This document shows positions 1,169 to 37,107 of a stretch of DNA of 64,000 nucleotides, piece by piece. The notes under the pieces were generated by a model that did no database searches, had not been told where the DNA came from, and saw only the letters and a program-made list of their open reading frames with translations. The position numbers and the translations under genes were made by a program. Origin of the DNA: Bacteroidales bacterium (lineage in GTDB: Bacteria; Bacteroidota; Bacteroidia; Bacteroidales; UBA3663); assembly GCA_045629225.1 (NCBI GenBank), contig JAZQQU010000016.1, positions 1,447 to 65,446 on the forward strand. The letters are read 5' to 3'. The stretch's first letter is position 1, and each line of letters opens with the position of its first letter.

Positions 1169-1253
1169 CACGCATTATTTTGAAGTCCTGATAAGGATAA
1201 ATAATCACGCTCGAAAAAAAAGTATAATAAATAACACTAAAAACAATTACTAT

Positions 1254-1385
1254 TATGACAACAAAGAAAAACTATGTCAAGCCATCTCTCGAGGTAGAGA
1301 TGTTCCAGAAAAGTGACTTGATAGCCACAAGTGGAGTAACGCTCGGCCTAAGTCCGGTGCCAGAAGAAGAAGGTTTTGGCGACTA
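1254..1385 (+). CDS. Micro-ORF A, 43 aa, acidic tail (MTTKKNYVKPSLEVEMFQKSDLIATSGVTLGLSPVPEEEGFGD)
   Basis: An ATG...TAA ORF below the track cutoff. It sits between the candidate promoter and the first large gene and is paralogous to micro-ORF B at 10891. Confidence 0.45.
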
Positions 1386-1423
1386 AGTCCGTGCAAGTAT
1401 TATCAAAGAACAAATAAATCAAG

Positions 1424-4400: not shown

Positions 4401-5038
4401 CTCCAGTCCCTGGCCCGAAGGGTGTTTATCACGCTCGTGAAATCAGTAACCAGTACGGTACCGTATGTCTGCCATACGCGTTGAAGTCTGACGATACTAT
4501 CAGCTACTATACTTTCCAGGAGTCAACAGATGACAATGGAGAGGTTAAACTCCACTTTGATTATGTCGAAACTGTGGCTCCATTCACTCCTGTCTTGTTC
4601 AAGGCAGCTGAAACGGGTGAAATTACCATCTGCGACACTAATAATGGTTGGGCAGACAGCCCAGTTCCTCCAACTCCTGGTGATTGGATGCTCATTGGAT
4701 TGGACGAAGAGAAGGTTTACACAGGTGAGACTGCCAAAATAGTCTATTACGTTTCTGACGGTCAAATCAAGAACGCCCAGAAGGTCACCATCAAGCCTTA
4801 CCGTGCCCACTTTATGGGTCCAAACTTCGACGATCTCACTAACAACGGAACCAGCAGTGCCCGCATCAGCATCGTGCTTGACGGTGAGGAGGACGAGACC
4901 ACGGCTCTGGAGTTCGTAGGCAATGATCTCCACCCAGCACAGAACGCCAAGAGCTACACCCTCTTCGGCACCGAGGCTGGCGAAGGCTACAGCGGCATCG
5001 TGATCCGTGGCGGCAAGAAGGTGGCTGTGAACATGTAA
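1424..5038 (+). CDS. GLUG-repeat cell-surface protein, putative T9SS cargo
   Basis: Signal peptide MKKILFTLFLLLTTMAAWA. It carries many GGIVG/GGMAG...NC...G repeats typical of the GLUG motif, and F(D)G.GHTI head modules. The C-terminal tail ...YTLFGTEAGEGYSGIVIRGGKKVAVNM resembles Por-type sorting domains. Confidence 0.7.
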   Translation: MKKILFTLFLLLTTMAAWAEGTGDGTKEHPYSGEWKDTEVMSSLFEIGEHYLAYDFTLVGEGSVTTSVIDDKLDTQVATDLSVWHVGDDLIGDNPNEAYIQYCSFNPDRKNHIFIVTDATAHGNIIITGHFSGTYPQYDGYIPVTTAAELQSVIRNDIAAKVLLCADIDVSGIGKIRDNFKGTISGIYSKVDPETNKTVTAYHILKGRNTKEHDGDRLQLHLFDNVDGATFENIVFSNFMVHADDDNLGIIAQTAKNSKFKNLIFNSCSMFNNDDYVGVVAGTASNCSFEIVMMQGCDVTTDGEYAGAIVGKSDHCQFNRVMCGTGVYVFADGNVSNAWSGGITGYSENDNFTHCIHMGLVGANSDYVGGMAGSSKDSNFLSCSNAAMVAHCQGEKFSEIQEQREEELKKLDETTLKTMFSNIYVGGATTIVGTGVFGIVSYLTYIAEAEEFLQGYSMWGGMEGVTLEFLGGAPEASPFIGYILPAIMLGLTIWYVYYDGTGDCYAGGIVGLAENGTIEQCANYGLVNSIKSFVGGIVGDAVGVVINNCLNGGTVHQDRDNHWFDGPYRVGGIVGRGRENTKVTNCLTANGYPISGSRTKSDIRLDQASGNNFSIGRTDHDSELDFLELSVSQEIVKNGLVAFWLNNGTENVEKGIRPWHQNLWARQIDGQEVKRDDFPILDAAHDEVTADLFYDDHNRDSEHFYYINDANGLQAFADAVNKDNKEFAIGFLESDIDFEGKTWNPIGMCADHKRFRGFFDGRGHTIKGIVSETDRDDTGSGLFGTVDALAYICNVTVDATSYLTNAGMGGAAGIVGNLHSGSKWGNLFIVNCGSNAHVIVNEHGGGIIGRIWAPSAGDEHVRVYINNCYSTGDVTATNGNSGLLCGYAQNYAHVSDCWSSGNLLSKTDGKKPYDDSHGEYFVGYHEKVNIKDCYTLDPTIHVQNASSDLKQNGVEVFDAGYLNNGLFTLMLNGNTNDVTQSLSWQQNLGTDASPVPGPKGVYHAREISNQYGTVCLPYALKSDDTISYYTFQESTDDNGEVKLHFDYVETVAPFTPVLFKAAETGEITICDTNNGWADSPVPPTPGDWMLIGLDEEKVYTGETAKIVYYVSDGQIKNAQKVTIKPYRAHFMGPNFDDLTNNGTSSARISIVLDGEEDETTALEFVGNDLHPAQNAKSYTLFGTEAGEGYSGIVIRGGKKVAVNM

Positions 5039-5058
5039 CAGTTGACTAACAAAAATAA

Positions 5059-5095
5059 TTAATGTCCGATTAATGTCTCATTAGTCGGACATTAA
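5059..5095 (+). terminator. Intercistronic hairpin (attenuator or partial terminator)
   Basis: TTAATGTCCGA (5059-5069) pairs with TCGGACATTAA (5085-5095) around a 15-nt loop. There is no clear T-run. Confidence 0.4.
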
Positions 5096-5141
5096 TGGTA
5101 CAAGTAAACAACAACAATAAACAATCATTTTTGGGATAATA

Positions 5142-8100
5142 ATGAAACGAAACAAACTTTTGCAATCGTTGGTAATGACACTGCTGGGTTTTGCCACTAC
5201 GATGACAGCGCAGGTCAGACTGCTTCCGAACAGCGCAGGCTGTTATGAGATTGCTACGGACGAGGACTACGAGGAGTTCCGTCAGTTGGTAGCAACCGGT
5301 AATCCTTATGCCAACGCGGTGCTGACAGACAACATCACCGTGCATGATGCCATTGGCAAGGGCGACGTGCAGTTCCACTACCGTGGCACATTCGACGGTC
5401 AGGGCTATACCATCACCCTGGATAGCTTGACCAACGATGTCAATAATCAACCTTGGGGTTTGTTTCAATATACTGAGCCTGGATGTGTGATTAAGAACCT
5501 GAAGGTTACGGGTTATGCCGAAAACCAAAACAACAAGTCACTGGGCTCGATAGTAGGCAATGCCATGGGAACCAGAATTGAGAACTGCATCAGTTTTGCA
5601 AAGCTGAAAGCCACAGATGGCTACACTGGCGGTATCGTCGGTGCCGGCTACGGGGTTAACTTCATCGAGAACTGCGCTTTTGTGGGCAGTATTGATGCAC
5701 CAGAGTCTTATGGCATCATCGGATTTGTAAACAATAACGTAGAGATCAAGAGCTGCTATGTGGATGCAACATTCAGTGATCCTGACAATAGCAAGCAGTT
5801 CTTGAAAAAGAATGACGATGGGCAGATACTCCTGAACAACTATTACTGCAACCGTGCTGGGGCTGTGGATGCAGGTTATTCTGATGCAATTCCAGTTGAA
5901 GAGAGTAAAATACAAGAAGGACAATTATGCCTTGATCTCAATGTCAACGGTCGCAAGGGCCGTGTGTGGTATCAACATGGCGATTATCCCTATCCTTTCA
6001 AGGGTTCAGCCGTCAGCACAACATGCGACAATCACGATTTCATTGAGCATATTTGCCAGAATTGTGGCGAGATCGAGAGCGGAAAAACGGTCGATCCATT
6101 GCAAAAAAGTGGTGCTGACAACATGTATGAGGATAATGCAACCTACGTGAACAATCTTCGTTACACGCTTAATCCCGACAGTACAGCGATTGTAAGAGGT
6201 ACACATAAGGAGAATATGGATATTGATAACGTGACTGCTGTCCACATTCCTGATACCATTTGTTACAATAACCAGAAATACGCCGTAAAAACCATTGGAG
6301 ACAATGCTTTCAATAAAAGCGTAATGGAGTATTGTTATATCCCCGGCACGGTGAAAAAACTTGAAAACAATGCTTTCAATAGATGTGAGAAACTGACGTA
6401 TCTGCATATAGCCGACTCTCCGAGCAATTCAGCAGTCAGGTTCGGAACTTATGCTGCGGGTGCGCTGTTCAAAGACTGTCCGTTGAAGACCCTCTATATA
6501 GGCTGTAACGTAAGGTGGAATGCCGACGATCCAGCTCCTTTTGAAGGTAGGACGGATCTGAAGAGTGTGTTCTTTGGCCCGCTTGTTACACGTATTTCCA
6601 ATGTTGACGATGGCAATGACCCAAGAGCTGGTTCGTACGTTGAGCTTTTCGATGGTTGCACAATCAATAAACTGTACTTCCTGGGCACTGAGCAATCGTA
6701 TGAAGATGCTGATCTGAAATCCTATATGGAGGAGGGTTTGAACTGCGCTACCGACATTTACGTGAACCGCACCTTCTTGGTTGATAGCGACACTAAAGAT
6801 TACACGACCTATTATAAAGAAGGTATCTTCAGAAGTTGCGTCAACGTGGCATTTGGCCCATTCGTAAAATATATCGGAGAGGATTTGTTCGGTGGTGCTT
6901 ATTTTATTTCTCCTTTGCCTAATAGTCCTAACGAGACGCTTAAGACTGTCGATTTCACCAATGCTATCCGTCTTGAGCGTATTGACTACGAGGCATTCAA
7001 ATTATGTACCAATGCTGTTTTCTTGGGATTGGAGGGTCAATATCCTTTGAAGAGCATTGGCGAGGATGCATTCTACGAATGCGACAAACTCGAGTTTATC
7101 AATTTCGGTACTCAGTTGGTGTCTATTGGTAAGACCGCATTCAAAAAATGTGACGAGCTGATTTTCCTCTCGATTCCTGGCACCGTGACCACTATCGGTA
7201 GTGCTGCCTTCGACGATTGCCCTAAACTGCAGGGTGTGTCAATCGAATCGAGCTCCCAAGCCCTTGACTGGGAACAGCTGAAAGGTCGCTTTGATGGTGA
7301 TACAAAGAACATTGCTACTCTGTACTTAGGCCGTAATATATCAAATGTTCCTGAGACCCTTCCTGCAGGTACCGATAGTCCGTTCGATGCCAGCGACGGT
7401 TCTCTCACCAGCCTTACTGTCGGTCCGGAAGTGACTAATCTGCATCGTAGCCTGTTCTATAGCATGAATGCCATCAGTTCGGTCGTCTTCGAACATTCTG
7501 ATATGGCCCTCAGGTTTGAGAAAACTCCTGAATACACCTTTGATATCGGAAAATCAGGTATGGTGATAGATAACAATCCGATTTCATCATTGTTTATTGA
7601 CCGTGATTTACTTAATGGTGATAACCAGAGATCAAAGGGCGATGATTGGGGAATGGCGAAAGAACTCGTCCGAGACATTACTTTCGGCGAGCATGTCAAG
7701 CAGATTTTCGAGAGCCAGTTTGAAGGGTTCGAAGGTCTGCAGACGCTGCTTATCTCTCCTACCATCGATTATATCAGCGAAAAAGCATTCTGGGGTGCCC
7801 TCAGCCTCGAGCAAGTGACTTTCCTCGGACATGCGGACATCAGGGAAGAGGCATTTGCCAATTGTTTCAATTTGAAAACCATCGTTTTTAGTGATGACAA
7901 ATTTTACCTCTCATCAGGTGCATTCATGAACTGTTATGATATTGAGGAAATCATCATCAACTCGGAAGGTAATGCTTGGGAAGGCCCCTGGGATGCTTTT
8001 TGCGAAAATGCTTACTCCAGAACCAAACTGTACTCTACATACGATACAAGCGTAGAGAAAGTAGAATTCTCGAATATGCCATGGAACCTGTTCCAGAATC

Positions 8101-9353
8101 GTCCTTTCAAGCCGACTAATGATTATGTTGCCAATGTAAGCGAGCTTTCGGGCATCTACGAGCATGCCATGATGCCTCGCGAGGTGGAGGAAGGCCAGTT
8201 CGATTTGTTCTACATTCCTTTCCAGTGGGATTCATATTACTTCGGCTCCGACGCTGAAATCTTTGCACTGCAGACCGATAAGGACGACCCTGAAGATGAA
8301 CGATATGAAGAGATATTCGAGAACATCGATGAACAAAAAGCCTTAGGCTCATACAATGCTGCTCTGGATCCGGTTGACATACAGTCTGTCTGGAGGCTGC
8401 CTGCCGGCATCTATGCTGTCAGGACCAATTATCCGGCATCTGAGATTCATGCCACCAGAAATCAGTTCTTTGAATCGGAAATCGAGGTTAACAATGCCCT
8501 GCATTCCATCAGGACCTCAGATATTGAAGCAGCAGGCACACAGCTTATGGTCGGCGGCAATGACAGCAACGTTGAGCCTGATGACGATAGAGCTAACTAT
8601 GTATTTGAGGATGGCGTAATCAAGATGGTCAATGGGACTCACGCTGTCAAAACGGGTGATGTCGTTCTCAGTGGTTCATTCATTGCAGATCTTCAGGTTT
8701 ACAATGTAAAGCTCGGAAGCAATTATACCTATTCTTCAAAACTGACAGTGCCTTTCCACGAACTGCTTGAGGGCTATGCTACCTTCTACAACGAGACGTA
8801 CAATGTGCTGGCTCCTGCATGGTGTACTGTCTATGTCATCACAGGCGAGCAAGACGGTCTGGTTCAGATGGTCGAAGTCGAAGACCGCGTGATTACTGCG
8901 GGTCAGGCAGTCGTGATCAAGACGGACTATCCGGCTGCCATCGGAGCTGTTGACTTCGTGACTTACGTGACTGATGGCAGTAGCGCTAAGGAACTTTACG
9001 AGCAGAACCTCCTCCATGGTGTAAGCCAGGACACCCAGGTAGCTGACATCTCTAATGGCGAAGGCTATGTGTACGTGCTTAGCTGCAACCAGCAGAAACA
9101 GAACACCGGTTTCTACAAGTTCAGTGATACCAAGACTCTCGGTGCTGGCAAGGCATACCTCCTGCCTTCGGACTTCAGTTCGGCAGCCAGGGCTTGTCTC
9201 TTTGCGTTCAATGAAGTTGCAAATGGCATCAGCGATGTTACCATTACTGACAACAACGGCGATGCTTACGACCTCACCGGCAAGCGCATCGATGCGAACC
9301 AGACAGACGCCAAGGGCATCTTCATCGTTGACAACAAGAAGGTAATCAAGTAA
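5142..9353 (+). CDS. GLUG + BspA-type leucine-rich-repeat cell-surface protein, putative T9SS cargo
   Basis: Signal peptide. The N-terminal region has the FDGQGYTI head and GGIVG..NC repeats. The central region has LRR_5/BspA-like repeats (IP.TV..IG..AF..C..L). The C-terminal tail is AYDLTGKRIDANQTDAKGIFIVDNKKVIK. Confidence 0.75.
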   Translation: MKRNKLLQSLVMTLLGFATTMTAQVRLLPNSAGCYEIATDEDYEEFRQLVATGNPYANAVLTDNITVHDAIGKGDVQFHYRGTFDGQGYTITLDSLTNDVNNQPWGLFQYTEPGCVIKNLKVTGYAENQNNKSLGSIVGNAMGTRIENCISFAKLKATDGYTGGIVGAGYGVNFIENCAFVGSIDAPESYGIIGFVNNNVEIKSCYVDATFSDPDNSKQFLKKNDDGQILLNNYYCNRAGAVDAGYSDAIPVEESKIQEGQLCLDLNVNGRKGRVWYQHGDYPYPFKGSAVSTTCDNHDFIEHICQNCGEIESGKTVDPLQKSGADNMYEDNATYVNNLRYTLNPDSTAIVRGTHKENMDIDNVTAVHIPDTICYNNQKYAVKTIGDNAFNKSVMEYCYIPGTVKKLENNAFNRCEKLTYLHIADSPSNSAVRFGTYAAGALFKDCPLKTLYIGCNVRWNADDPAPFEGRTDLKSVFFGPLVTRISNVDDGNDPRAGSYVELFDGCTINKLYFLGTEQSYEDADLKSYMEEGLNCATDIYVNRTFLVDSDTKDYTTYYKEGIFRSCVNVAFGPFVKYIGEDLFGGAYFISPLPNSPNETLKTVDFTNAIRLERIDYEAFKLCTNAVFLGLEGQYPLKSIGEDAFYECDKLEFINFGTQLVSIGKTAFKKCDELIFLSIPGTVTTIGSAAFDDCPKLQGVSIESSSQALDWEQLKGRFDGDTKNIATLYLGRNISNVPETLPAGTDSPFDASDGSLTSLTVGPEVTNLHRSLFYSMNAISSVVFEHSDMALRFEKTPEYTFDIGKSGMVIDNNPISSLFIDRDLLNGDNQRSKGDDWGMAKELVRDITFGEHVKQIFESQFEGFEGLQTLLISPTIDYISEKAFWGALSLEQVTFLGHADIREEAFANCFNLKTIVFSDDKFYLSSGAFMNCYDIEEIIINSEGNAWEGPWDAFCENAYSRTKLYSTYDTSVEKVEFSNMPWNLFQNRPFKPTNDYVANVSELSGIYEHAMMPREVEEGQFDLFYIPFQWDSYYFGSDAEIFALQTDKDDPEDERYEEIFENIDEQKALGSYNAALDPVDIQSVWRLPAGIYAVRTNYPASEIHATRNQFFESEIEVNNALHSIRTSDIEAAGTQLMVGGNDSNVEPDDDRANYVFEDGVIKMVNGTHAVKTGDVVLSGSFIADLQVYNVKLGSNYTYSSKLTVPFHELLEGYATFYNETYNVLAPAWCTVYVITGEQDGLVQMVEVEDRVITAGQAVVIKTDYPAAIGAVDFVTYVTDGSSAKELYEQNLLHGVSQDTQVADISNGEGYVYVLSCNQQKQNTGFYKFSDTKTLGAGKAYLLPSDFSSAARACLFAFNEVANGISDVTITDNNGDAYDLTGKRIDANQTDAKGIFIVDNKKVIK

Positions 9354-9385
9354 ACAACACCACCAGAATAAATAATCGTAACAAA

Positions 9386-10852
9386 ATGAAAAAGATATTA
9401 TTCATGCTGACAACGCTCTTGCTGATGGCTAGTTTTTCGGCCATAGCACAAGAGAGGTCAGGCTACACTGCCGAGGAAAAGAACAGAATGATTGCGGCCT
9501 GGCAAAAGAAGCTCGATGAGGACGGAAACCCTTTGCGTGTCAGAATTGAAGGCTACGAAGAGTTGTATTTCGAACCTATGGGCATAGATACCGTGATGAT
9601 TGACGGCAGTAATTCCTCTGGTCCGAACCGGTCTTCTGCTTTGTTGTGGCCCGGTGCAGACAGACACTTCTATTCATACATGAGCGTGGACGGAAAGAAT
9701 GACTCTATCCGTCTTTCAGCGGTATTATATACTCAGTCGCATACGTTTCACCACAGCTATTTCAACAAGCTTCTGATCAACTGTCATCCTACCGTCACCT
9801 CCCTCTACGAGGCTCCCTCGGGCGGCAAGCCTGTTGACGGAGATATTAAGCGTATCGTCGATGACGAGTATATGGTGGTGTGCCCCGACTATTGTGGCTA
9901 TGGCGTAAGCGCCTATAAGCAGCACCCGTACCTCGTGCACGACATTACGGCACGCAACTGTGTGGATGCAGCCATGGCAGCCAAGGCGTTGGGAAAGTTA
10001 CTGGCCGGTTCGATACCAGATGGCTTTAATACGTCTATTGTGGGTTATTCGCAGGGTGGCGCCACTGCTTTGGCTTGTGCAAAATACCTTGAGAGTGATG
10101 CCTGCCCCGAAAACTATAAGAAAGAGCTTAACCTTAAGGAGACTGCATGCGGTGATGGTCCATACTCTACGCGGGCTACTGTCAATAGGTATCTCGAATG
10201 GGGCAAACAGGGCAAGAACCTTGAGTACCCATGTGTATTGCCCCTCATCATAATGGCTGCCAAAGAGGCATACGGCAACGGCTGTATGCGCACCGTTGAC
10301 GTGAAGAGCTATTTCTCCGAAAAGTTCCTGAATACTGACGTATTTGAATTGCTCCAGAATAAGTCTCTGACAACCGTTGACCTGAATGAGATAATCATGG
10401 AACAGATGGAAAATCATCTGCTGCCTATTGACATCTTCTCTGATAAGCTCATCGACACGGATACAGGCGACTTCATTACCACCTCGAACGAATACAAGTG
10501 TCTGATGCGTGCCATGGAAATCAACGACCTGACCAAAGGTTGGGAGCCACAGCACCCTATCACCTTCTTCCATCTCAAAAATGATGGCGTTGTGCCATAC
10601 GACAACTACGAGGAAGTGATAAAGGAGGATGGCATCCAGTACAAGAAGGATGGATCCCCGAATAACAATGTTCGAAGCGTTGACCCTGGTATCATCATGT
10701 TGAATGTGCCAAGAGTGGCTCTGTGGAAAGCTTCACTTCCTTGGATTAATTTGGTTGGTTCGGCAAGAATGGATCTGGATAAGCTTAACCATGCATCTGG
10801 TGGTACATACTTTTACATACTATATCTTTTCGAGAATAATTACTTGCGCTAA
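9386..10852 (+). CDS. Secreted alpha/beta hydrolase (lipase-like)
   Basis: Signal peptide MKKILFMLTTLLLMASFSAIAQ and a nucleophile elbow VGYSQGG. Confidence 0.65.
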   Translation: MKKILFMLTTLLLMASFSAIAQERSGYTAEEKNRMIAAWQKKLDEDGNPLRVRIEGYEELYFEPMGIDTVMIDGSNSSGPNRSSALLWPGADRHFYSYMSVDGKNDSIRLSAVLYTQSHTFHHSYFNKLLINCHPTVTSLYEAPSGGKPVDGDIKRIVDDEYMVVCPDYCGYGVSAYKQHPYLVHDITARNCVDAAMAAKALGKLLAGSIPDGFNTSIVGYSQGGATALACAKYLESDACPENYKKELNLKETACGDGPYSTRATVNRYLEWGKQGKNLEYPCVLPLIIMAAKEAYGNGCMRTVDVKSYFSEKFLNTDVFELLQNKSLTTVDLNEIIMEQMENHLLPIDIFSDKLIDTDTGDFITTSNEYKCLMRAMEINDLTKGWEPQHPITFFHLKNDGVVPYDNYEEVIKEDGIQYKKDGSPNNNVRSVDPGIIMLNVPRVALWKASLPWINLVGSARMDLDKLNHASGGTYFYILYLFENNYLR

Positions 10853-10890
10853 TCCCAGTATTCCAATTGTCTAATTTCAATCGAAATAAT

Positions 10891-11040
10891 ATGAATCACA
10901 AGAAACAATTCACCATACCACAGATCGAGGTGGAAGAGATTAGTGGAGCAGACCTGATATGCACAAGCCTGAGACGCTATGATGATGAAGCGGATTTCGC
11001 CGGAGCCAGAGGTAGTGTTTTTGACGACTTTGATGAATAA
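10891..11040 (+). CDS. Micro-ORF B, 49 aa, acidic tail (MNHKKQFTIPQIEVEEISGADLICTSLRRYDDEADFAGARGSVFDDFDE)
   Basis: An ATG...TAA ORF below the track cutoff, positioned as the last cistron before the terminator. It shares M..KK.[YF]..P.[LI]EVE.....DLI.TS with micro-ORF A. Confidence 0.45.
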   Translation: MNHKKQFTIPQIEVEEISGADLICTSLRRYDDEADFAGARGSVFDDFDE

Positions 11041-11110
11041 TACGATTTAAGTTTCGCAAGTCCTTAACTTGCGAGAAACTTGAGTAATACTATACTTATA
11101 GCTGAGGGAA

Positions 11111-11150
11111 AAAAAGAGAGGATGCGCCGGACTGCGTATCCTCTCTTTTT
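11111..11150. terminator. Bidirectional rho-independent terminator
   Basis: AGAGAGGATGCG (11115-11126) pairs with CGTATCCTCTCT (11135-11146), including one G.U pair, around the 8-nt loop ccggactg (11127-11134). An A-run precedes it and a T-run follows, and it lies between convergent genes. Confidence 0.8.
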
Positions 11151-13666: not shown

Positions 13667-13746
13667 GGGGTGATGAGTTTGTTTCGTTGTTTTCGGTGAT
13701 TTGTTGTTTGGTTGTTGTGTTGTTTTGTTGTTTTGTTCTTTTGTTG

Positions 13747-15102
13747 TTATTGGAACTGCCAATAGTCGAAGTCGAACATCTCTTCGTTTTGGTCACGGAA
13801 GATGACGTACAGGTCGTGCTTGCCCTTAGTCTCGCCTTTCACCTCCACGGTGATGGGCTGTGAGGCATTGTTGGCGTTGACCTCGAAGCGGGCGATGGGG
13901 CGGCCCTCGCGTCGGTCAAGGTAGAATTCTACGATGCCTGCGTTCTTGAAGTTGCGCACGCCGATGGTGCAGCGGGTGGCGCCTTCGCCAAAGTCCACCT
14001 CACGCACACGGATCCAGTCGCCATTGTGCACCGAGGTCACCCAGTGCTCGCGCCCATCCAGATGATCCAGACTCACGCCCCAGCTCTGCGACATAGTCTC
14101 ACCCTCCACACGACGGTAAGGATTGATGGTGCCCACGGGCTTCACGCCTTCGCGGGTAAAGGGGATGAAGGGAATCGAGCCGTCGGCATTGAACCAGAAC
14201 TCCTCGATCGATGTGGAGCGACGGAAGCCGCCACCATTGGGCAGAAGTCCGTCGTGGTAGAACATGTAGTCGTTGCCCTTGTAGTGCACGTTGCCGCCAT
14301 GGATGGTGAACGAGTTCGGAGCTTCGTCCATGATGCGGCCGTGGAAGGTCCAAGGACCGTCGATGGTGGGAGCGGTGGAATAGGCCATGTATTCGGGTAC
14401 ACCACCAGCAGGATAGACGGCGTAATAGAGGTCGCCGCGACGGGTCACCCAGGGTCCCTCTTCATACTGTGTCATCAGGCGTTCCTTGCCGATGCTCCAA
14501 TCCATCTTCGACTGCAGCGGACCGAAGCTCTCAGGGTCGGTGTAGCCTGGTACCTGCTTATAGCCGTCGGCAAACGAGATCATGTCATCGTTGAGCTTGC
14601 CATACCAGAAGCCTTTGTTGCCCCAGAACAGGTAGGGTGTGCTGTCGTTGTCGATGAAGACTGTGGGGTCGATGAAGCCGAAGCCTGTGGCAAGAGGCGC
14701 ACCGATGGCGTCGCTGTAGGGGCCTTGGGGATTGTCGGCCACAGCTACTGCCAGGGCATCTTTGCCGTCAGCGGTGTTGCAGCACACATACCAGTACCAC
14801 TTGCCTTTGTGTTCCACGGCTTGAGCGGCCCACGCACGGTCGCCCTGTGCTGCCCATTTGAAGGTGGCGGTGGTGACAGGTGTGCCAAGGTAGGTCCAGT
14901 TGACCATGTCTTCGGTCTCGAACAGGATCCAGTCTTTCATCTTGAAGTAGAGGGCATCGTCCTCGTCATGATCCACAAAGAGGTAGAGCTTGTCGCCGTG
15001 CACGTAGGGCGCAGGATCGGGTGTGTACATGGCGCTGATGGCGGGGTTCTGGGCCATGGCCAGGGTGGGCCAGGCTAGGAGGGTAAGTAATGGTGTTTTC
15101 AT
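13747..15102 (-). CDS. Glycoside hydrolase family 43 with C-terminal CBM6-like domain
   Basis: MYTPDPAPYVHGDKLYLF, IDPTVFIDNDSTPYLFWGN and YEEGPWVTRRGDLYY. The C-terminus has GDWIRVREVDFGEG...DFDYWQF. I place the start at MKTPLLTLLAWPTLAMAQ (ATG at 15102). Confidence 0.85.
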   Translation of the reverse strand: MKTPLLTLLAWPTLAMAQNPAISAMYTPDPAPYVHGDKLYLFVDHDEDDALYFKMKDWILFETEDMVNWTYLGTPVTTATFKWAAQGDRAWAAQAVEHKGKWYWYVCCNTADGKDALAVAVADNPQGPYSDAIGAPLATGFGFIDPTVFIDNDSTPYLFWGNKGFWYGKLNDDMISFADGYKQVPGYTDPESFGPLQSKMDWSIGKERLMTQYEEGPWVTRRGDLYYAVYPAGGVPEYMAYSTAPTIDGPWTFHGRIMDEAPNSFTIHGGNVHYKGNDYMFYHDGLLPNGGGFRRSTSIEEFWFNADGSIPFIPFTREGVKPVGTINPYRRVEGETMSQSWGVSLDHLDGREHWVTSVHNGDWIRVREVDFGEGATRCTIGVRNFKNAGIVEFYLDRREGRPIARFEVNANNASQPITVEVKGETKGKHDLYVIFRDQNEEMFDFDYWQFQ

Positions 15103-15109: not shown

Positions 15110-15173
15110 GTTGTTTTGTTGATTTGTTGTTGTGTTCTTTTGTTGTTTTGTTGTTTTGTTGGTTGGTTATATC
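15110..15173. repeat. Octamer array GTTGTTTT x8 (AAAACAAC on the coding strand), forming the 5' leader of the GH43 gene
   Basis: Eight consecutive 8-bp units each begin with GTT. Similar arrays lie at 13667-13745, 17739-17820 and 29362-29421. Confidence 0.85.
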
Positions 15174-17830: not shown

Positions 17831-17926
17831 ACCTCAAAACCTTAAGACCTTAAAACCTTAAAACCTCAAGACCTCAAAACCTTAGGACCTCAAGACCTCA
17901 AAACCTCAAAACCTCAAAACCTCGTT
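17831..17926. repeat. Octamer array ACCTYARR x12
   Basis: acctcaaa accttaag accttaaa accttaaa acctcaag acctcaaa accttagg acctcaag acctcaaa acctcaaa acctcaaa acctcgtt. The array runs into the stop codon of the OMP gene. Confidence 0.9.
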
Positions 17927-20508: not shown

Positions 20509-21867
20509 TTAAAAGTTGTGAGTAGTTGCTTTGAAGTTAGTCCCTCCGCTCACTCGCAGGAAGCGCCACAGATAGAGCAGCGCAGCCGTGGTGAGACCAA
20601 AGGGGAAGCCCATCCATACACCGAAGGCCCCCCAGCCGAGGGTAACGCCCAGCAGGTAGCTGAGAGGTAGTGAGATGATGAGGTAGGCAATGGTGGAGTA
20701 TTTCATCAGCTTCTTCACGTCGCCCAAGCCGCGCAGGGCATTGGCAAAGGTGCACTGCATGCCATCGCCGAACTGATAGAGTACCAGTGGGATGGCCAGC
20801 GTGGCCACAATCGTAGCCACCTCCTCGCTGTCAGTGAAGAGTACTGAGATGTCGTGCCTGAAGCTGAATGCAACCACACTGAGCACCAAGCCAAGCACTG
20901 CAATCATCTCGTAGCCCGCAAAGGCAGCGTGACGCACGCCTCGCATGTCGTTCAGTCCATTGTAGTTGCTCACGCGTATAGACACCGCTGTCGAAACGCC
21001 GATGTAGAACATGAAGATCAGGTTGGCCATATTGATCATCACCTGATGGGCAGCCAACGTATTGGTGCCCATCCAGCCCAAGAAGATTGCTACCAGGGCG
21101 AACGAGGCTGTCTCCACACCCATCTGGAAGGCAATGGGCCAGCCCAGACGATTGAGCAACAGACAGTCGCGCATGTTGGCATGCGCCTTGCCCCATTCGG
21201 ATACATACTCCCGATATTTGGGACGATAGAAGAAGATCAACGCGCTCAGCACCAGTATCACCACCCTCGACGAGAAGGTCGCCCATGCTGCTCCCTCAAT
21301 GCCCATCTCAGGAAAACCCAGGTGACCGAAGATCAGCACCCAGTTGAAGAAAATGTTCCACACGTTGCCTATGAGCATCGTGGTCATGGCCACAGAGGTG
21401 TCGTTGATGCTGTCCGTGAACTGCTTGAAGGCACCGCTGCATGCCATCAGGGGGAGCGAAAGCAGCTGAATGACCAGGTAAGGCTTCATCAGAGGCAGTA
21501 GCTCCTCAGGTTGCCCCATGTAGGGCAGGGCGAAGTACAGTCCCACCAGTACTGAGGCTATGAGCAGACCCTGCAGTGTGTCGGTGATGAGCGAGCTCTT
21601 CAGTACCGAGGCTATGCGGTCCTTGCGCCCTTGGGTGTAGAGCGAACCGATCACAGGCATGGCACCCGTTGAGAAACCGATGGTGAGTAGCAGCGCCAGG
21701 ATGAAAAGATTGTTGACAAAGCCTGCTGCAGCCAGCTCCTCAGTGGAGTGTTGTCCCACCATGATGTTGTCGGCCAGATTCTGTAGCGTGATGCCTACTT
21801 GACCGATGGTGATGGGGATGCCCAGTCGCACCAGTGCTTTGTATTCTTGTGGATAATATAGTCGCAT
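20509..21867 (-). CDS. MATE family efflux transporter
   Basis: N-terminus YKALVRLGIPITIGQVGITLQNLADNIMVG and a 12-TM profile. Confidence 0.85.
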   Translation of the reverse strand: MRLYYPQEYKALVRLGIPITIGQVGITLQNLADNIMVGQHSTEELAAAGFVNNLFILALLLTIGFSTGAMPVIGSLYTQGRKDRIASVLKSSLITDTLQGLLIASVLVGLYFALPYMGQPEELLPLMKPYLVIQLLSLPLMACSGAFKQFTDSINDTSVAMTTMLIGNVWNIFFNWVLIFGHLGFPEMGIEGAAWATFSSRVVILVLSALIFFYRPKYREYVSEWGKAHANMRDCLLLNRLGWPIAFQMGVETASFALVAIFLGWMGTNTLAAHQVMINMANLIFMFYIGVSTAVSIRVSNYNGLNDMRGVRHAAFAGYEMIAVLGLVLSVVAFSFRHDISVLFTDSEEVATIVATLAIPLVLYQFGDGMQCTFANALRGLGDVKKLMKYSTIAYLIISLPLSYLLGVTLGWGAFGVWMGFPFGLTTAALLYLWRFLRVSGGTNFKATTHNF

Positions 21868-22341
21868 ACGAAGGAGATATATTTATGCAGACGCGAAGAT
21901 ACTCATTTTCCTTCATATTTCCTACACTTGCCATCCTTTTGTTGCAAATTATCCAATCTTTTCTTCACAATCATTGGCAAATGCCATCTTTGCCGTGCGA
22001 TTGACAGCTCGTTGTGCGTCCACATTAACTTGCCGGCAATCTTGTCACGCTTCTGTGCGTCCATAGTATTCTGCTCAGGATGTTGGTGCGTCATTTTGTC
22101 TGCTCGGAGGTCTGTCTGACGTCCAGGAGGCTGTTCGTGCGGAGTGACCGGATAATTATATTAGGTTCGCCTGCACCAATGGGTACACAGATGGGCTCGC
22201 GCACATATTAAGTCGATAACAGGCTATTGTTTGCTGGAGCTCGACATTGGGTATTGTCCAACGTCATTATGTCATTTTCCGCGCATTTGATACTCTCTGT
22301 CACCAAAAGCGTAGATTTTTCTTTGCTTTTTGGGTCGAAAA

Positions 22342-22373
22342 TTTGTTTTTTTCGGTATAAAGCAGTATCTTTG
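22342..22373 (+). promoter_or_regulatory. Consensus promoter of the peptidase-PqqD-kinase-ABC operon
   Basis: TTTG at 22342-22345 and TATCTTTG at 22366-22373, with a 20-nt spacer. Confidence 0.65.
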
Positions 22374-22441
22374 CAGCATTAAAAACGAAAACTGAGACGA
22401 AGACGAAAACGCTAGAGGAGATCCTGCAGGAGCAGGGAAAG

Positions 22442-22900
22442 TTGGTTTATACCAATGTGGGCACCAGTATGATGCCCCTGTTGCGTGAGCGCCGTGACTT
22501 GCTGATCATCGCTCCGAAGCCGGAGGGTAGGCTGCGGTTGTGGGACGTGCCGCTATACAAACGCGACAACGGACAGTATATCATGCACCGTGTGCTCTGG
22601 GTGCGTCGCGATGACTACTTGATATGTGGCGACAACCAGTGGCACATTGAGCGTGGCATACAGGACCGCCACATCATTGGTGTGCTCGAAGCTGTGCAAC
22701 GCGATGGCCGAGTACTGCCCGTTCGACCAACGCCTGAGTATCCTCATGTGCCCCTCAGATACCGATTGTATGTGGCGTTGTGGTGTCTGGGATTCCCTGT
22801 GCGTTGTCCGCTGTTGTTCCTGACACAGAGCTGGCAGAGGGCAAGGTGGTACTACAGACACGGGTTGCTGGGTAAGAAGTTGAGGCAGAAGTTTTCTTGA
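22442..22900 (+). CDS. S24/S26-family serine peptidase (LexA/SipW-like)
   Basis: GTSMMP (nucleophile Ser), PLYKR...YIMHRV (Lys or His general base) and CGDN. The only plausible start that keeps the Ser is TTG at 22442. The frame is open from 22361 but contains no ATG. Confidence 0.65.
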   Translation: MVYTNVGTSMMPLLRERRDLLIIAPKPEGRLRLWDVPLYKRDNGQYIMHRVLWVRRDDYLICGDNQWHIERGIQDRHIIGVLEAVQRDGRVLPVRPTPEYPHVPLRYRLYVALWCLGFPVRCPLLFLTQSWQRARWYYRHGLLGKKLRQKFS

Positions 22901-22941
22901 AAAAACAATTCGAGTACAAGCAAAAACATAAACACGAAGAT

Positions 22942-23208
22942 ATGAAACTGAAATACAAGATGGGTGTGCAGCACATCCTTGATTTTTGGGCAGCTGTGCC
23001 TGTGGGAGCGGATGCCAAGCGCTATAGTGGTGTGATGTCGCTTAACGAGACTGCTAAGGATATGATTGAGATGCTCAACGATGAGATCACTGAGGACGAG
23101 ATGGTCAGACGTCTGCTGGCTGAGTATGATGTGACCGAGGAAGAGCTTCGTCCACATGTGCGCGAGTTGCTGGACAAACTGAGGGCTGAGAATTTGCTGG
23201 TGGAGTGA
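22942..23208 (+). CDS. PqqD-family protein (RiPP recognition element-like)
   Basis: About 88 aa. LNETAKDMIEMLNDEITEDEMVRRLLAEYDVTEEELRPHVRELLDKLRAENLL matches the PqqD pattern. I use ATG at 22942; the track ORF begins at TTG 22897. Confidence 0.7.
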   Translation: MKLKYKMGVQHILDFWAAVPVGADAKRYSGVMSLNETAKDMIEMLNDEITEDEMVRRLLAEYDVTEEELRPHVRELLDKLRAENLLVE

Positions 23209-23951
23209 TGAGAACAGGCACTTACCTCCTTGCCGACGTCCCTGTCGAAATCACCTCACTCCACGACGAGGTGCACCTGATGTGTGCTGACTACCGCACA
23301 GACCGATCTGCCGAACTGACCATTGTGACTACACAGGACGACATCGAGGAGGAATGTCGTCAGAGCGATGAGCAGCGCCAGGCAGAAGGCTTGCCTCCCT
23401 ATCACTACGATGATGCCTATCTGGAGACGCTGGCCGTGTATCGCAAGCTGGCTGCACAGCTGATGCAGCAGGGTGTGCTGCTGATGCATGGCTCGGTGAT
23501 AGCTGTGGATGGCGAGGGCTACCTCTTCACGGCATTGAGCGGCACAGGAAAGAGTACTCATGTGCGCCTATGGCGTCGTCTGTTCGGTGAGCGTGCAGTG
23601 ATGGTGAACGATGATAAGCCTTTGGTGCGAGTCGTGTCGGATGCAGCAAGCCCTCTGGTCTATGGCACTCCCTGGGACGGCAAGCATCACCTGAGTAACA
23701 ACATTGCAGTGCCACTGAAGTCTATCGTATATCTGGAGCGTGGCGAGCAGAACGAGATTCACCGCGTGGATGTGCGCACTATCTTCCCAGTTCTGATGCA
23801 GCAGACCTATCATGGCGAAACTTCGTCGGGCACGCTACAGGCTATGGCGCTGCTTGGCGAGTTGGTCAAGAAGGTGAAATTCTACGATTTGCACTGCAAT
23901 ATGAACCCTGAAGCTGCCCGTGTGGCCTACGAGGGCATGCAGACTGATTGA
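23208..23951 (+). CDS. HPr kinase C-terminal-domain-like P-loop protein (HprK-related kinase)
   Basis: MHGSVIAVDGEGYLFTALSGTGKSTHV...AVMVNDD parallels HprK's HG..v...g.GvLi.G.SG.GKS...LvaDD. The ATG overlaps the PqqD stop (TGATG). Confidence 0.6.
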   Translation: MRTGTYLLADVPVEITSLHDEVHLMCADYRTDRSAELTIVTTQDDIEEECRQSDEQRQAEGLPPYHYDDAYLETLAVYRKLAAQLMQQGVLLMHGSVIAVDGEGYLFTALSGTGKSTHVRLWRRLFGERAVMVNDDKPLVRVVSDAASPLVYGTPWDGKHHLSNNIAVPLKSIVYLERGEQNEIHRVDVRTIFPVLMQQTYHGETSSGTLQAMALLGELVKKVKFYDLHCNMNPEAARVAYEGMQTD

Positions 23952-23956
23952 ACATA

Positions 23957-25540
23957 ATGAAAAAACAACTCCTTTGGTTATACAGCCAGACCCGAGGTCA
24001 TCGTGTGCAGCTCTTCTTAGGCGTGGCGCTGGGCTTGATACATATCGTGTTAGGCCTGCTTTTTATCTACGTTAGCAAGGGGTTGGTGGACATCGCCACC
24101 GGGCTGAGGCAGGGTGATATGTGGCAGCAGGTGGGCTTGCTGGCCGCCATGCTGGTGCTGCGGCTGGGCGTCACCGCCTGGCGTCACTGGGTGAGCGAAC
24201 GCGTCACAATCCGGCTCACCAACGCGCTTCGTCATCGCCTCTTCTTGCGGGTGATGAGTGGCCAGTGGCAGGGGCGTGAATCGATGGCTTCGGGCGACGT
24301 TATGAGCCGTCTGGGCGAGGACCTGCGCGTGGTGGTGTCGTGCATCTGTAGCGATATACCATCGATCGTGATGTCGCTCTTCCAGGTGCTGGCTGCCTCG
24401 TGGTTTCTCTTCACCATGCAGCCTATGCTGCTGTGGGTGCTGCTCTGTATCTTCCCTATAGCACTGCTGATCAGCAAGGTCTACTATCGCACCATGCGCA
24501 GGCTGACCAAGGTGTATCGCCAACAGGAGGCCGACATACAGAGCCAGATGCAGGAGTCGGTGCAGAACCGTCCGCTGCTGCTTTCGCTGCAACGCGTGGG
24601 ACTGATGGGAGAGAAACTGGCCAAACTGCAACAGCTGCTTTATGGCACCAGCATCGAACGTCTGCATTTCAACATTCGTACCCGATTCCTTATACAGGCT
24701 GGTTTCAGTGCAGGCTACTACACAGCCTTCGTATGGGGTGCGCACGGCATCATGACGGGTGTGGTGACCTACGGCATGATGACCGCCTTTCTGCAACTGG
24801 TGGCCCAGGTGCAGCGACCTATCCTTGACCTGAGTTCCTTATTGCCAGGCCTGGTCCAGAGTCTCACAGCCGTGGAGCGCCTGCAACTGTTGGCCTCGAT
24901 GCCTCAGGAGAGGGATATTGACAACAGCACGCAGGTCAAGGAGATTGTGCTCAAGGACGTGTGCTACCACTATCCGGGCGATGATCGCTTGGTCCTTGAC
25001 CACCTCAGCGTTCGCTTCCCTGCAGGTAGCAGCACCGCCATTGTGGGGCCTACAGGGTCGGGCAAGAGTACCTTGATTCGACTGTTGCTCCAGCTGCTGC
25101 AACCTACGAGTGGCACCATCCAGACGTCGCGTAGTTCCATCTGTTATGTGCCTCAGGGCAACAGCCTGCTGCGCGGTACCATACGCGAAAACCTGCTGCT
25201 TGGCAAACTCGATGCTACTGAGGAGGAGATGCGCGATGCCCTGCACCGAGCCTCGGCGGATTTCGTCTATGACCTGGCACGCGGCCTCGATACTCGTTGC
25301 GGTGAGAAGGGCAGTGGCCTCTCCGAAGGACAGGCACAGCGCATAGCTATAGCCCGTGCTCTATTGCAGCCAGGTTCGGTGCTGATCATGGACGAGGCTT
25401 CGTCGGCTCTCGACCCTGACACCGAGCATCAGATACTCGAAGAGCTACAACAGCACGATCTGGGCAAGACGCTGATCTGGGTGACTCACCATGACATTGT
25501 GCGGCAATACATGCAGCATTGTCTGGAGATCAATTCGTAA
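23957..25540 (+). CDS. ABC exporter, fused permease/ATPase
   Basis: N-terminal TM domain, Walker A GPTGSGKST, signature LSEGQAQR and Walker B LIMDEASSALD. The ATG lies 6 nt after the kinase stop. Confidence 0.85.
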   Translation: MKKQLLWLYSQTRGHRVQLFLGVALGLIHIVLGLLFIYVSKGLVDIATGLRQGDMWQQVGLLAAMLVLRLGVTAWRHWVSERVTIRLTNALRHRLFLRVMSGQWQGRESMASGDVMSRLGEDLRVVVSCICSDIPSIVMSLFQVLAASWFLFTMQPMLLWVLLCIFPIALLISKVYYRTMRRLTKVYRQQEADIQSQMQESVQNRPLLLSLQRVGLMGEKLAKLQQLLYGTSIERLHFNIRTRFLIQAGFSAGYYTAFVWGAHGIMTGVVTYGMMTAFLQLVAQVQRPILDLSSLLPGLVQSLTAVERLQLLASMPQERDIDNSTQVKEIVLKDVCYHYPGDDRLVLDHLSVRFPAGSSTAIVGPTGSGKSTLIRLLLQLLQPTSGTIQTSRSSICYVPQGNSLLRGTIRENLLLGKLDATEEEMRDALHRASADFVYDLARGLDTRCGEKGSGLSEGQAQRIAIARALLQPGSVLIMDEASSALDPDTEHQILEELQQHDLGKTLIWVTHHDIVRQYMQHCLEINS

Positions 25541-25561
25541 GATATCTTCAGATTCCACAAC

Positions 25562-25651
25562 CCCTTCAAACTCCTCGAACTCCTCGAACTCCTTAAACTC
25601 TTCGAATTTCTCAAACTTTTCGAACTCATCAAACCCCTTAAACTCAATACC
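25562..25651. repeat. Nonamer array CTCYTCRAA x10, forming the 5' leader of the LOG-family gene
   Basis: Units start at 25562, 25571, 25580, 25589, 25598, 25607, 25616, 25625, 25634 and 25643. The array ends 3 nt before the ATG at 25654. Confidence 0.9.
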
Positions 25652-25653
25652 CT

Positions 25654-26607
25654 ATGCTTGACCTTGATCTCTATTACAAGATTCATAAGACAGGCCTTAA
25701 GGACTACCTGCAGGGCGTGCCCTTCCATGTGCTTCGCTCCCGGCTCTATACTCCTATAGAACTGTTCGAGGCATACGTGCTTGGTAGCCCCGAGAGTTTC
25801 GAACAATGTGCTGACACCGTAATCTACCGCCACATGGTGGCTTCGGGCAAGATTACGCCCGATCCTATGGTGCAGAGTGCTCGCTCGATGCACGACTGCT
25901 CGATACGTAACGCCATGCAGCAATTCCTGGCCGACTATGAGCAGCGACAGGTGGTGGGTGTGATGGGCGGTCATGCTTTGCCTCGCACCGATGCTGCCTA
26001 CCGTCAGGTGGTGGAGGTGAGCAAGCAACTGACCGAGATGGGCTACCTCATGATCAGCGGCGGTGGACCTGGTGCCATGGAGGCTACACATCTTGGTGCC
26101 TGGTTGGCAGGACGTACGGACGAAGAGGTCGATGCTGCTCTCGCCATCCTTGCCCAAGCACCATGCTTCGAAGATGCAGGATGGTTTGATACTGCCTTCC
26201 GCGTCACCATGCTCTATCCACAGAAGAAGCATTACCAGAGCCTTGCCATCCCTACCTGGTTTTATGGCCATGAGCCCCCGACCATCTTTGCTACGCAGAT
26301 AGCCAAGTTCTTCGATAACAGCATTCGCGAAGATGTAATCCTCACCGAGGCCTACGGAGGTTTGATCTTTATGCCCGGCAGTGCAGGCACGCTTCAGGAG
26401 GTGTTCCAGGAGATTGTGCAAAACCACTATGTCTCGCTCGGTTTCCCCAGTCCGATGGTTTTTGTGGGTACCAAGTTCTGGAGCGAGGATGTGCCTGTCT
26501 ATCCTTTCATTCAGCACATGGTGCGCGAGGGACGTTACAAGAATCTTCTCATAGACCTGGTAGATGACAACGATGCCATCATCCAGAGCATTATTTCACG
26601 GCAATAG
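25654..26607 (+). CDS. LOG-family (TIGR00730-like) Rossmann-fold nucleotide-binding protein
   Basis: VVGVMGGHA...ISGGGPGAMEA...PGSAGTLQE motifs. Confidence 0.7.
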   Translation: MLDLDLYYKIHKTGLKDYLQGVPFHVLRSRLYTPIELFEAYVLGSPESFEQCADTVIYRHMVASGKITPDPMVQSARSMHDCSIRNAMQQFLADYEQRQVVGVMGGHALPRTDAAYRQVVEVSKQLTEMGYLMISGGGPGAMEATHLGAWLAGRTDEEVDAALAILAQAPCFEDAGWFDTAFRVTMLYPQKKHYQSLAIPTWFYGHEPPTIFATQIAKFFDNSIREDVILTEAYGGLIFMPGSAGTLQEVFQEIVQNHYVSLGFPSPMVFVGTKFWSEDVPVYPFIQHMVREGRYKNLLIDLVDDNDAIIQSIISRQ

Positions 26608-27684: not shown

Positions 27685-29385
<1,701 letters not shown>

Positions 29386-36534: not shown

Positions 36535-36810
36535 TTTATTTCGGATTATAAAAATATAAAAATGTCAATCAAAAGTGACAAAAGAATGGAGTAATGCTCG
36601 TTGTTGGTTGGTGTTTTTGGTAATATGTATCTATGTGGAGATTTGTGCGAGCAAAATGTTCTTGAATAATGATGATGTCTGTCAAAATGCTTTTACATTG
36701 GTCGGCTTTTCTGGCTAAATGTGTCGTTGCAGTACGCCAGAGGGTTGTCCCGAAGCTTGTTTATGTCAGCGAAGTCTTACAAAGGTACGAACACATACCC
36801 GTTGATACCT

Positions 36811-37062
36811 CTGTGTCTCCTTGCAGGGGCAAAAGTTGCATGTTTTGCCCCTCTGTGCTTCTGTGCAGGGGCAAAAGCTGCATATTTTGCCCCTCTGTGC
36901 TTCCGTGTAGGGGCAAAAGCTGCATGTTTTGCCCCTCTGTGCTTCCATGTAGGGGCAAAAGCTGCATATTTTGCCCCTCTGTGCTTCCGTGGAGGGGCAA
37001 AAGCTGCATGTTTCGCCCCTCTGTGCTTCCATGCAGGGGCAAAACATGCAAGTTTTACCCCT
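36811..37062. repeat. 42-bp tandem repeat x6, each unit a 10-bp-stem hairpin
   Basis: AGGGGCAAAA-n8-TTTTGCCCCT begins at 36825, 36867, 36909, 36951, 36993 and 37035. The 14-bp linkers are near-identical (CTGTGCTTCCGTGT). Confidence 0.95.
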
Positions 37063-37073
37063 CTTTACGCCAA

Positions 37074-37107
37074 CGAAGGTGCAAACGGGTATACGTTTGC
37101 ACCTTCG
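37074..37107 (-). terminator. 14-bp perfect hairpin downstream of the methyltransferase gene
   Basis: CGAAGGTGCAAACG-ggtata-CGTTTGCACCTTCG. There is no strong T-run. Confidence 0.45.

Follow-up and report, generated by a model that had tools for sequence, protein, structure and literature searches.

What does a set of genes that seems equipped to recognize, phosphorylate, cleave and export a peptide act upon when no gene for such a peptide lies beside it? The question is raised by a four-gene cassette within a 64,000-nucleotide stretch of a Bacteroidales contig, JAZQQU010000016.1 (the whole stretch is called the window here). The cassette encodes a serine peptidase, a PqqD-type recognition protein, a P-loop protein resembling HPr kinase (HprK) and an ABC exporter. 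An earlier note on this DNA had read the gene set in just that way, as acting on a leader-bearing peptide, and had suggested that the system might be undescribed. The functional reading is supported by homology to the experimentally dissected lpp system of Paenibacillus. The suggestion of novelty did not hold, because a description of that family, covering Bacillota only, had appeared in May 2026 (PMC13381572). From its sequence, the cassette is quite probably a Bacteroidales member of this class of ribosomal peptide pathways, the linear polyphosphorylated peptides (LPPs), and two short genes elsewhere in the window are likely candidates for its substrates.

LPPs are peptides synthesized on the ribosome and modified after translation (RiPPs), made by the lppA-K-B-S-D-N genes of Paenibacillus alginolyticus DSM5050, which were studied by expression in Bacillus subtilis (Popov et al., Nat Commun 2026;17:6633; PMC13381572). 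In that system LppB, a PqqD-type RiPP recognition element (RRE), binds the YxxP leader of LppA (motif YxxPxVLxHQxIxFETxxS), and the HprK-like kinase LppK phosphorylates Ser3 of the core as many as four times. The SipW-type peptidase LppS, with catalytic residues S29, H68 and D93, then cuts after T-1; leader removal depends on LppB, and the unphosphorylated precursor is poorly cut. LppD is the predicted export pump, and deletion of lppN caused no visible change in products. The 126 clusters described were stated to be restricted to Bacillota, where they often lie beside paeninodin-type lasso clusters and capsule loci. A supplementary table of the same study lists two Bacteroidota SipW-like proteins, fused to ABC transporters, which were not analyzed further.

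A cassette related to the lpp genes

The cassette and its putative promoter are laid out as follows.

22342-22373, forward strand: putative promoter 5' of the cassette, a match to the Bacteroides-type consensus (-33 TTTG, 20-nt spacer, -7 TAtcTTTG)
22442-22900, forward strand: peptidase open reading frame (ORF), lppS-like, with a TGA stop at 22898-22900
22942-23208, forward strand: PqqD gene, lppB-like, with its ATG at 22942
23208-23951, forward strand: kinase gene, lppK-like, with its stop at 23949-23951
23957-25540, forward strand: ABC exporter gene, lppD-like, with its ATG at 23957

These coordinates and junctions, including the TGATG at 23206-23210 in which the PqqD stop is fused with the kinase ATG, agree with those given in the earlier note. 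The PqqD start is matched in relatives, which carry MKLKY at the same place. The consensus promoter reported there is likewise borne out, as a match to the Bacteroides-type consensus (TTTG-N20-TAtcTTTG). For its pattern, TTTGN{17,23}TANNTTTG, the window has 8 matches where 0.65 would be expected, a count that none of 100 shuffles reached and that is a further sign of a Bacteroidota genome.

The relationship to the lpp genes was assessed with the reference locus of Paenibacillus frigoriresistens (L084), where LppS shares 97% identity with the published protein. Hidden Markov models (HMMs) of the cassette's families, run at Z=1e6, matched LppK at 5.1e-16 (64.4 bits), LppS at 5.5e-13 and LppD at 6.4e-121. 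BLASTP agreed, aligning the window kinase with LppK at 1e-9, the peptidase with LppS (WP_029196374.1) at 2e-11 with 29% identity over 98 residues, and the ABC protein with the LppD orthologue at 4e-53. Because three of the four families match their lpp counterparts in both kinds of search, and because LppK shares its best library match, ScmC, with the window kinase, the cassette was assigned to the LPP type. The ABC protein itself is a half-transporter (ABC_membrane 2.9e-26, ABC_tran 1e-25) with no C39 peptidase domain, and is predicted to be an MsbA-type exporter acting as an LppD-like pump.

The P-loop protein is predicted to be a kinase of the HprK and phosphoenolpyruvate carboxykinase (PEPCK) fold, as the earlier note had supposed in calling it HprK-like. 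Its AlphaFold model, with a predicted local distance difference test score (pLDDT) of 92.4, matches structures of ATP-dependent PEPCK and HprK/P at E-values of 1e-7 to 1e-5, and its Walker A motif, SGTGKST at 23538-23558, is invariant in relatives. Matches in the local libraries are weak and sub-threshold (ScmC TIGR04249 at 1.3e-6, HprK_rel_A/B and Hpr_kinase_C), while its precomputed Pfam family, PF27840, is named ScmC and includes LppK. That name opens the question of whether the cassette is instead of the SynChlorMet (SCM) or HPr-rel-A type, in which the P-loop protein would work with radical-SAM or other partners and not as a peptide kinase. ScmC is indeed the top-scoring named model, and, like the window kinase, it is a P-loop protein with an HprK/PEPCK fold whose gene adjoins that of a PqqD-like protein. 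However, the kinase reaches 27.9 bits against an equivalog cut-off of 125 for ScmC, and 17.6 against 200 for HprK_rel_A (TIGR04352). Nor does the PqqD protein fit the HPr-rel-A kinase and PqqD pairs of which the earlier note had been reminded, as it scores 20.4 bits against 35 for PqqD_rel_X (TIGR04353). SCM cassettes also include two radical-SAM/SPASM enzymes, ScmE and ScmF, whereas the window cassette has none and no such gene lies in its flanks. Finally, LppK, an experimentally proven kinase, has ScmC as its best match too. An SCM or HPr-rel-A identity is therefore hardly credible. A literature search for ScmC and SynChlorMet returned unrelated acronyms only.

The peptidase had been described as a serine protease of the LexA/SipW type, which fits the LppS alignment and the conservation of its motifs. 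The boxes typical of endoplasmic reticulum (ER) and archaeal signal peptidases (GxSMxP, HR and GD) are invariant across 47 relatives; in the window they correspond to the Ser codon at 22466-22468 (GTSMMP), the His codon at 22586-22588 (MHRV) and GD at 22628-22633. The position of LppS D93 is taken by Glu (22649-22651), a conservative change found in 47/47 relatives. The 152-residue protein had no match in Pfam, NCBIfam, PADLOC or PDB sequences, and none to TIGR02228 or the Pfam S24/S26 models. At the level of fold, its model (pLDDT 78) most resembles SipA, UmuD', LexA, the lambda repressor C-terminal domain and SpsB, all pointing to the S24/S26 clan, albeit weakly (E 7e-3 to 5e-2, template modeling scores of about 0.4-0.5).

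The PqqD assignment was put to the profile check proposed in the earlier note and passed it, with PF05402 matched at 2.3e-14, over the Pfam cut-off. Its N35 corresponds to N33 of LppB, and this Asn is invariant in 49/49 relatives. The top NCBIfam models for this protein are lasso-peptide B1 chaperones, with scores under their cut-offs. Searches of PDB chains with the sequences of the three small proteins gave nothing useful and left the LppB crystal structure, 9X8Z, unmatched.

The resemblance to B1 proteins bears on another origin, namely that the cassette is what remains of a paeninodin-type lasso cluster that lost its cyclase and B2 protease. The parts in common (a B1-like RRE, an HprK-like kinase and an ABC exporter), a lasso-like YxxP leader in the candidate precursors described below, and PqqD scores slightly higher on lasso B1 models than on LppB would all fit such a remnant. 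The cyclase and B2 are indeed missing, as the earlier note had stated: when the Paenibacillus cyclase and B2 were used as tblastn queries, no homologue of either was found in the 64 kb, and radical-SAM, YcaO and LanM domains are absent within about 9 kb of the cassette. Yet the fetched loci of relatives, also searched by tblastn, contain neither cyclase nor B2, except for the Paenibacillus reference locus, which is not what would be seen if orthologous clusters were always embedded in complete lasso loci. Moreover, a cassette with a dedicated SipW-type peptidase has been kept across hundreds of species, and the kinase is far closer to LppK than to the neighboring paeninodin-type lasso kinase of the reference locus (4.2e-5, 28.7 bits). 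We regard decay from a lasso cluster as highly improbable. The link to paeninodin-type clusters minus cyclase and B2, which the earlier note had made, is the same as that drawn by the authors of the LPP study (PMC13381572).

Distribution of the cassette

Relatives of the kinase are numerous. A word-indexed search returned 7,300 matches, and an exhaustive search gave 712 representatives at 50% identity with E<=1e-30 and 3,717 with E<=1e-10; relatives were found in 534 species genomes. The best 80 genome loci fall into two groups: Bacteroidales of the rumen and gut, with identities of 55-72%, and Clostridia (Ruminococcus, Lachnospiraceae and Oscillospiraceae), with about 50%. Gene orders were counted after ORFs had been called and clustered in all fetched loci. 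The commonest order in Bacteroidales is peptidase-PqqD-kinase-ABC (13/28 loci), and in Firmicutes kinase-PqqD-peptidase-ABC-N, which is the lpp order (17/54). N denotes a PF14907 nucleotidyltransferase (3.8e-41) whose HMM, built from the relatives, matches LppN at 1.2e-13; it is present in 31/54 Firmicutes loci as opposed to 4/28 in Bacteroidales. An LPP-type enzyme set thus appears to be common in Bacteroidales and in rumen and gut Clostridia, which would extend the class to a second phylum. A 2023 paper on RiPP mining in Bacteroidales does not cover this cassette, and a paper on rumen lasso peptides treats complete lasso clusters only.

One locus labeled Alistipes senegalensis, of the Bacteroidota (L039), has the Clostridia-type gene order and carries the precursor type and identical core of the Ruminococcus loci L034-L036, which suggests mis-binning or a recent transfer.

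Candidate precursors encoded far from the enzymes

To find a precursor family, all small ORFs around the cassettes were clustered, in line with the neighborhood analysis for a co-varying small ORF that the earlier note had recommended. One family emerged, whose 25 members come from 20 Clostridia loci and for the most part directly precede the kinase gene; an example is MEKYETPVMEVIEFETEDVITTSGDGDITTPEI. The N-terminal half of these peptides is conserved (YxxPEMEVIxFxxEDVITTS), and the tail is short, variable and mostly acidic, the build expected of a RiPP precursor whose recognition motif, YxxPxh, is lasso-like. An HMM of the 25 ORFs was then run, with one iteration, on all loci and the whole window, translated in six frames, and it also found Bacteroidales members. 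The overall consensus is (Y/F)xxPxhxV...D[LIV]I[ATC]TS followed by a variable tail. In the window itself two members were found.

1255-1386, forward strand: candidate precursor A1, MTTKKNYVKPSLEVEMFQKSDLIATSGVTLGLSPVPEEEGFGD (HMM E 2.1e-5, and 1e-12 after one iteration)
10891-11040, forward strand: candidate precursor A2, MNHKKQFTIPQIEVEEISGADLICTSLRRYDDEADFAGARGSVFDDFDE (E 0.08 with the first HMM and 1e-6 with the second, A2 not being in its training set)

A1 and A2 are the sole matches to the precursor HMM at E<1e-3 in the 64 kb. Each has a leader motif, YxxP-x-hydrophobic in A1 and FxxP in A2, and in both a Thr is followed by the invariant Ser. A counterpart of A1, 43 residues long and 98% identical, has been called as a gene in another assembly (P0357). 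With a profile of nine Bacteroidales-type peptides, 71 public small proteins of 33-79 residues were retrieved, of which 0/71 had a name or a Pfam match. The precursors themselves had no match in Pfam, NCBIfam or PADLOC. Linkage to the enzymes differs between lineages: in Clostridia the precursor gene sits next to the cassette, and in Bacteroidales it is mostly unlinked, with 3/28 Bacteroidales loci as opposed to 22/54 Firmicutes loci having it at most 3 kb from the kinase gene. A1 and A2 are likely candidate substrates of the cassette, judging from their sequences. The view of the earlier note that the operon is without a precursor therefore stands in one respect, as none is adjacent (small ORFs of the 570-nt gap 5' of the cassette, 21868-22441, had no match to the precursor profiles), and fails in another, with two candidates inside the window.

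In one Clostridia locus (L058, from a Ruminococcus metagenome-assembled genome), six tandem precursor genes with differing cores lie at 2215-3223, 5' of a single kinase-PqqD-peptidase cassette.

The junction between leader and core can be sketched by analogy. Since the hydrophobic residue at -3 and the Thr at -1 match F-3 and T-1 of LppA (PMC13381572), the peptidase may cut after the invariant Thr and the kinase may phosphorylate the invariant Ser that follows, a placement drawn from the motif that we hold to be somewhat less than an even bet.

The surroundings of A1 and A2 are distinctive. Three large genes for signal-peptide proteins lie between them, whose membership in the pathway is uncertain.

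1424-10852, forward strand: three large signal-peptide protein genes between A1 and A2 (assigned with Pfam), encoding proteins of 1204 residues, 1403 residues with BspA-type leucine-rich repeats (LRRs), and 488 residues, lipase-like

A1 has its own -7 box (TAtcTTTG, 1161-1168), and a strong hairpin terminator follows A2 at 11111-11150 (-27.1 kcal/mol, z -5.1). All of this lies in a block of lower guanine-cytosine (GC) content, 390-11150, with values of 0.45-0.49 versus about 0.55, which starts beside a tRNA-Gln gene (390-461); the block could be transcribed as a single unit or have been acquired as an island. In a second assembly (L087), A1 is again paired with the gene for the 1204-residue protein, the identity being 47% over 815 residues. 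Elsewhere in Bacteroidales a lipoprotein gene lies directly 3' of the precursor gene, as in L085 (10001-11631), L011 (5294-7114), L015 (11226-12285), L019 (13797-14875), L029 (8396-9402) and L086 (52-1021). Most of these precursor-adjacent lipoproteins are members of a single family, and Pfam offers no more on it than a sub-threshold match to the fimbrillin-like Mfa_like_1.

It could accordingly be asked whether the cassette is active on precursors outside the window, and A1 and A2 serve another system or the neighboring surface-protein genes. They lie 21 and 11 kb away in the separate low-GC block, other Bacteroidales members of the family precede lipoprotein or secreted-protein genes and not the cassette, and in A2 a Phe replaces the Tyr of the recognition motif. 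Against this, the family was defined from ORFs mostly just 5' of the Clostridia kinase gene, and its members also sit inside the Bacteroidales clusters L011, L015, L019 and L029, the first of which has A, N, S, B, K and D all within about 7 kb. The window contains no other RRE, cyclase or B2, and no further match to the precursor HMM at the threshold given above. That A1 and A2 are not substrates is, on this evidence, decidedly unlikely.

If A1 and A2 are indeed the substrates, precursors can be encoded far from their enzymes, and genome mining that relies on clusters would miss such cases. They would also represent a second, previously unannotated precursor family with short acidic cores, and they offer concrete peptide sequences from abundant gut anaerobes. 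A broader proposal can be put forward tentatively, as one we consider possible and would not yet expect to hold. According to it, the cassettes of gut and rumen Bacteroidales and Clostridia make up a separate branch among phosphopeptide RiPPs, a very large one with a precursor family of its own; in Bacteroidales the precursor genes would have become detached and be co-transcribed with genes whose products lie at the cell surface (fimbrillin-like lipoproteins, BspA-type LRR proteins and further secreted proteins of large size), and the acidic phosphopeptides would serve or signal surface structures rather than act as antibiotics.

In Clostridia, large signal-peptide proteins of 600-1500 residues, belonging to one family, often adjoin the precursor and kinase genes. 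They lie 5' of the kinase gene in L034, L035, L036, L039, L063, L066, L068, L069, L074 and L081, and they show a weak match to the alpha-alpha toroid of prenyltransferases and squalene cyclases.

A proposed pathway and the case against it

The chemistry and the order of steps proposed here are inferred from the Paenibacillus experiments. Precursors would be translated from their own genes, here A1 and A2, and the PqqD-type protein would bind the (Y/F)xxPxhxV strand of the leader. The HprK-like kinase would then use ATP to place a phosphate, possibly several, on a Ser near the junction of leader and core. With the leader presented by the recognition protein, the SipW-type Ser/His peptidase would cut at the D[LIV]I[ATC]-T-S junction, and the MsbA-like ABC pump would export a short, acidic, linear product.

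Several observations weigh against this scheme. The chemistry is experimental in the Paenibacillus system only, the Bacteroidales and Clostridia members being known from genes alone. BLASTP of the window PqqD protein against LppB gave no alignment, and at the reference locus the PqqD family HMM scored 0.03 on LppB versus 5e-4 on the lasso B1. The Tyr-binding Asp of LppB, D70, corresponds to H72 in the window, a position held by Asp in 38/49 relatives. The precursors share YxxP alone with LppA of Bacilli and have neither the FET|xxS junction nor the SWNKG core; a profile-profile comparison with 14 Bacilli LppA sequences gave a probability of 0.2%. A1 and A2 are tied to the cassette by family membership and not by adjacency, given their distance upstream. 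No LppN homologue was found by tblastn in the 64 kb. Lastly, a TTG start would cost the peptidase its N-terminal helix, which in LppS contacts the RRE-leader sheet.

This last point concerns the 5' end of the peptidase gene. Between the stop at 22358-22360 and the TTG at 22442, the first usable codon, there is no ATG, GTG or TTG in frame, even though in-frame coding for the conserved N-terminal helix begins at about 22409. Relatives begin with M-x(1-6)-[TS]FEE.L in 46/46 cases, and the window has KTKTLEEIL (full reading KTKTLEEILQEQGK). 5' of 22412 the DNA bears no relation to the corresponding DNA in relatives, 22382-22411 being an A/C/G-rich stretch (ACGAAAAC, GAGACGAAGACGAAAACG). The gene may use a non-canonical start or encode a weakened enzyme, or ACG may stand at 22409 where an error in assembly replaced ATG.

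From that perspective, an LPP-type pathway could be decaying or silent in this genome, having lost the start codon and N-terminal helix of its peptidase as well as its nucleotidyltransferase, and yielding no mature product. The departure from the otherwise uniform N-terminus, the unrelated upstream DNA and the absence of LppN would be expected of such decay. Indeed, the corresponding helix of LppS packs on the RRE-leader sheet, and its E6 and I10 mutants cleave poorly (PMC13381572). On the other side, the peptidase frame is otherwise intact and keeps all catalytic and invariant residues, and the three remaining genes, which are tightly coupled, are intact too. N is missing in 24/28 Bacteroidales loci and its absence is therefore a lineage trait rather than decay; in the published system, moreover, lppN deletion left products unchanged (PMC13381572). 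If the window comes from a metagenome assembly, a single-base error at 22409 may account for the start. A decaying pathway is thus unlikely, and a functional LPP-type cassette remains the favored reading.

Flanking genes and repeats

Within about 9 kb, the flanks of the cassette encode a GH43 protein, an aminotransferase, an outer-membrane barrel protein, an SBF symporter, and MatE, LOG-like and esterase proteins, followed by a CTP synthase and an amidotransferase assigned by reading their translations. As ordinary genes flank it on both sides, the cassette can be regarded as a compact island. A sigma-70 and terminator scan of 21800-26000 detected no terminator 3' of the ABC gene, a scan that is uninformative for a Bacteroidales genome. 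The intergenic DNA that separates the ABC gene from its 3' neighbor is taken up by a 9-nt tandem repeat (25559-25645).

Such intergenic tandem repeats, with units of 8-9 nt, are frequent in the window, other instances lying at 17831-17923, 13679-13748, 15110-15161 and 28921-28961. Two further arrays have units of 41-42 nt, at 589-812 and 36808-37104 (5.5 and 6.1 copies, about 90% matches), and by eye the unit of the first contains an inverted repeat, GCCAGA-GTTTC-TGGC. An identity as clustered regularly interspaced short palindromic repeats was rejected for both arrays, as their units are too alike and too closely spaced. A defense system was also considered for the cassette and discarded: PADLOC gave nothing specific, and the ABC protein drew generic ATPase matches alone.

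Comparison with known systems

Three known systems help to place the cassette. With signal peptidase I of the SipW or archaeal-ER type (MEROPS S26B; TIGR02228), the window peptidase shares the SM.P, HR and GD boxes and the Ser/His pair. It differs in having no N-terminal membrane anchor; its N-terminal helix is amphipathic and the helices at its C-terminus are hydrophobic. Its substrate would be a cytoplasmic leader presented by the RRE, not a Sec signal peptide.

Lasso clusters of the paeninodin and pseudomycoidin type (A, C, B1, B2, D, K, N) follow the same leader logic, in which a (Y/W)xxPxL motif is bound by a discrete B1/RRE, and likewise have an HprK-like kinase that acts on a precursor Ser and an ABC exporter. 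The window, by contrast, has neither the macrolactam synthetase nor the transglutaminase-like B2, so its product is not expected to adopt a lasso fold, and the leader would be removed by the serine peptidase.

The closest counterpart is the LPP system itself. Both have a SipW-type Ser/His peptidase, a discrete PqqD-type RRE with the conserved Asn, a PF27840 HprK-like kinase and an MsbA-like exporter, and neither has a cyclase or B2; in both, a YxxP-type leader motif is followed by a Thr, which in the window peptides marks the putative junction, with an invariant Ser nearby. The differences are nonetheless considerable. The window belongs to Bacteroidota, its gene order is S-B-K-D and LppN is missing from it, whereas the Clostridia relatives keep the K-B-S-D-N order with the precursor gene 5' of K. 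Its peptidase, which carries Glu in place of D93, has diverged too far for TIGR02228, and its RRE has His at the D70 position. The window precursors are unlinked and belong to another sequence family, with a D[LIV]I[ATC]TS junction in place of FET[AS]QSWNKG and acidic cores of 18-24 residues as opposed to the basic, Gly/Asn/Pro-rich cores of 30-45 residues in LPPs. In one further respect the two converge: these precursors recur beside surface-protein genes, much as the LPP clusters of Bacilli lie within capsule loci, and together the two contexts suggest a role at the cell surface, which we offer purely as a lead on LPP function.

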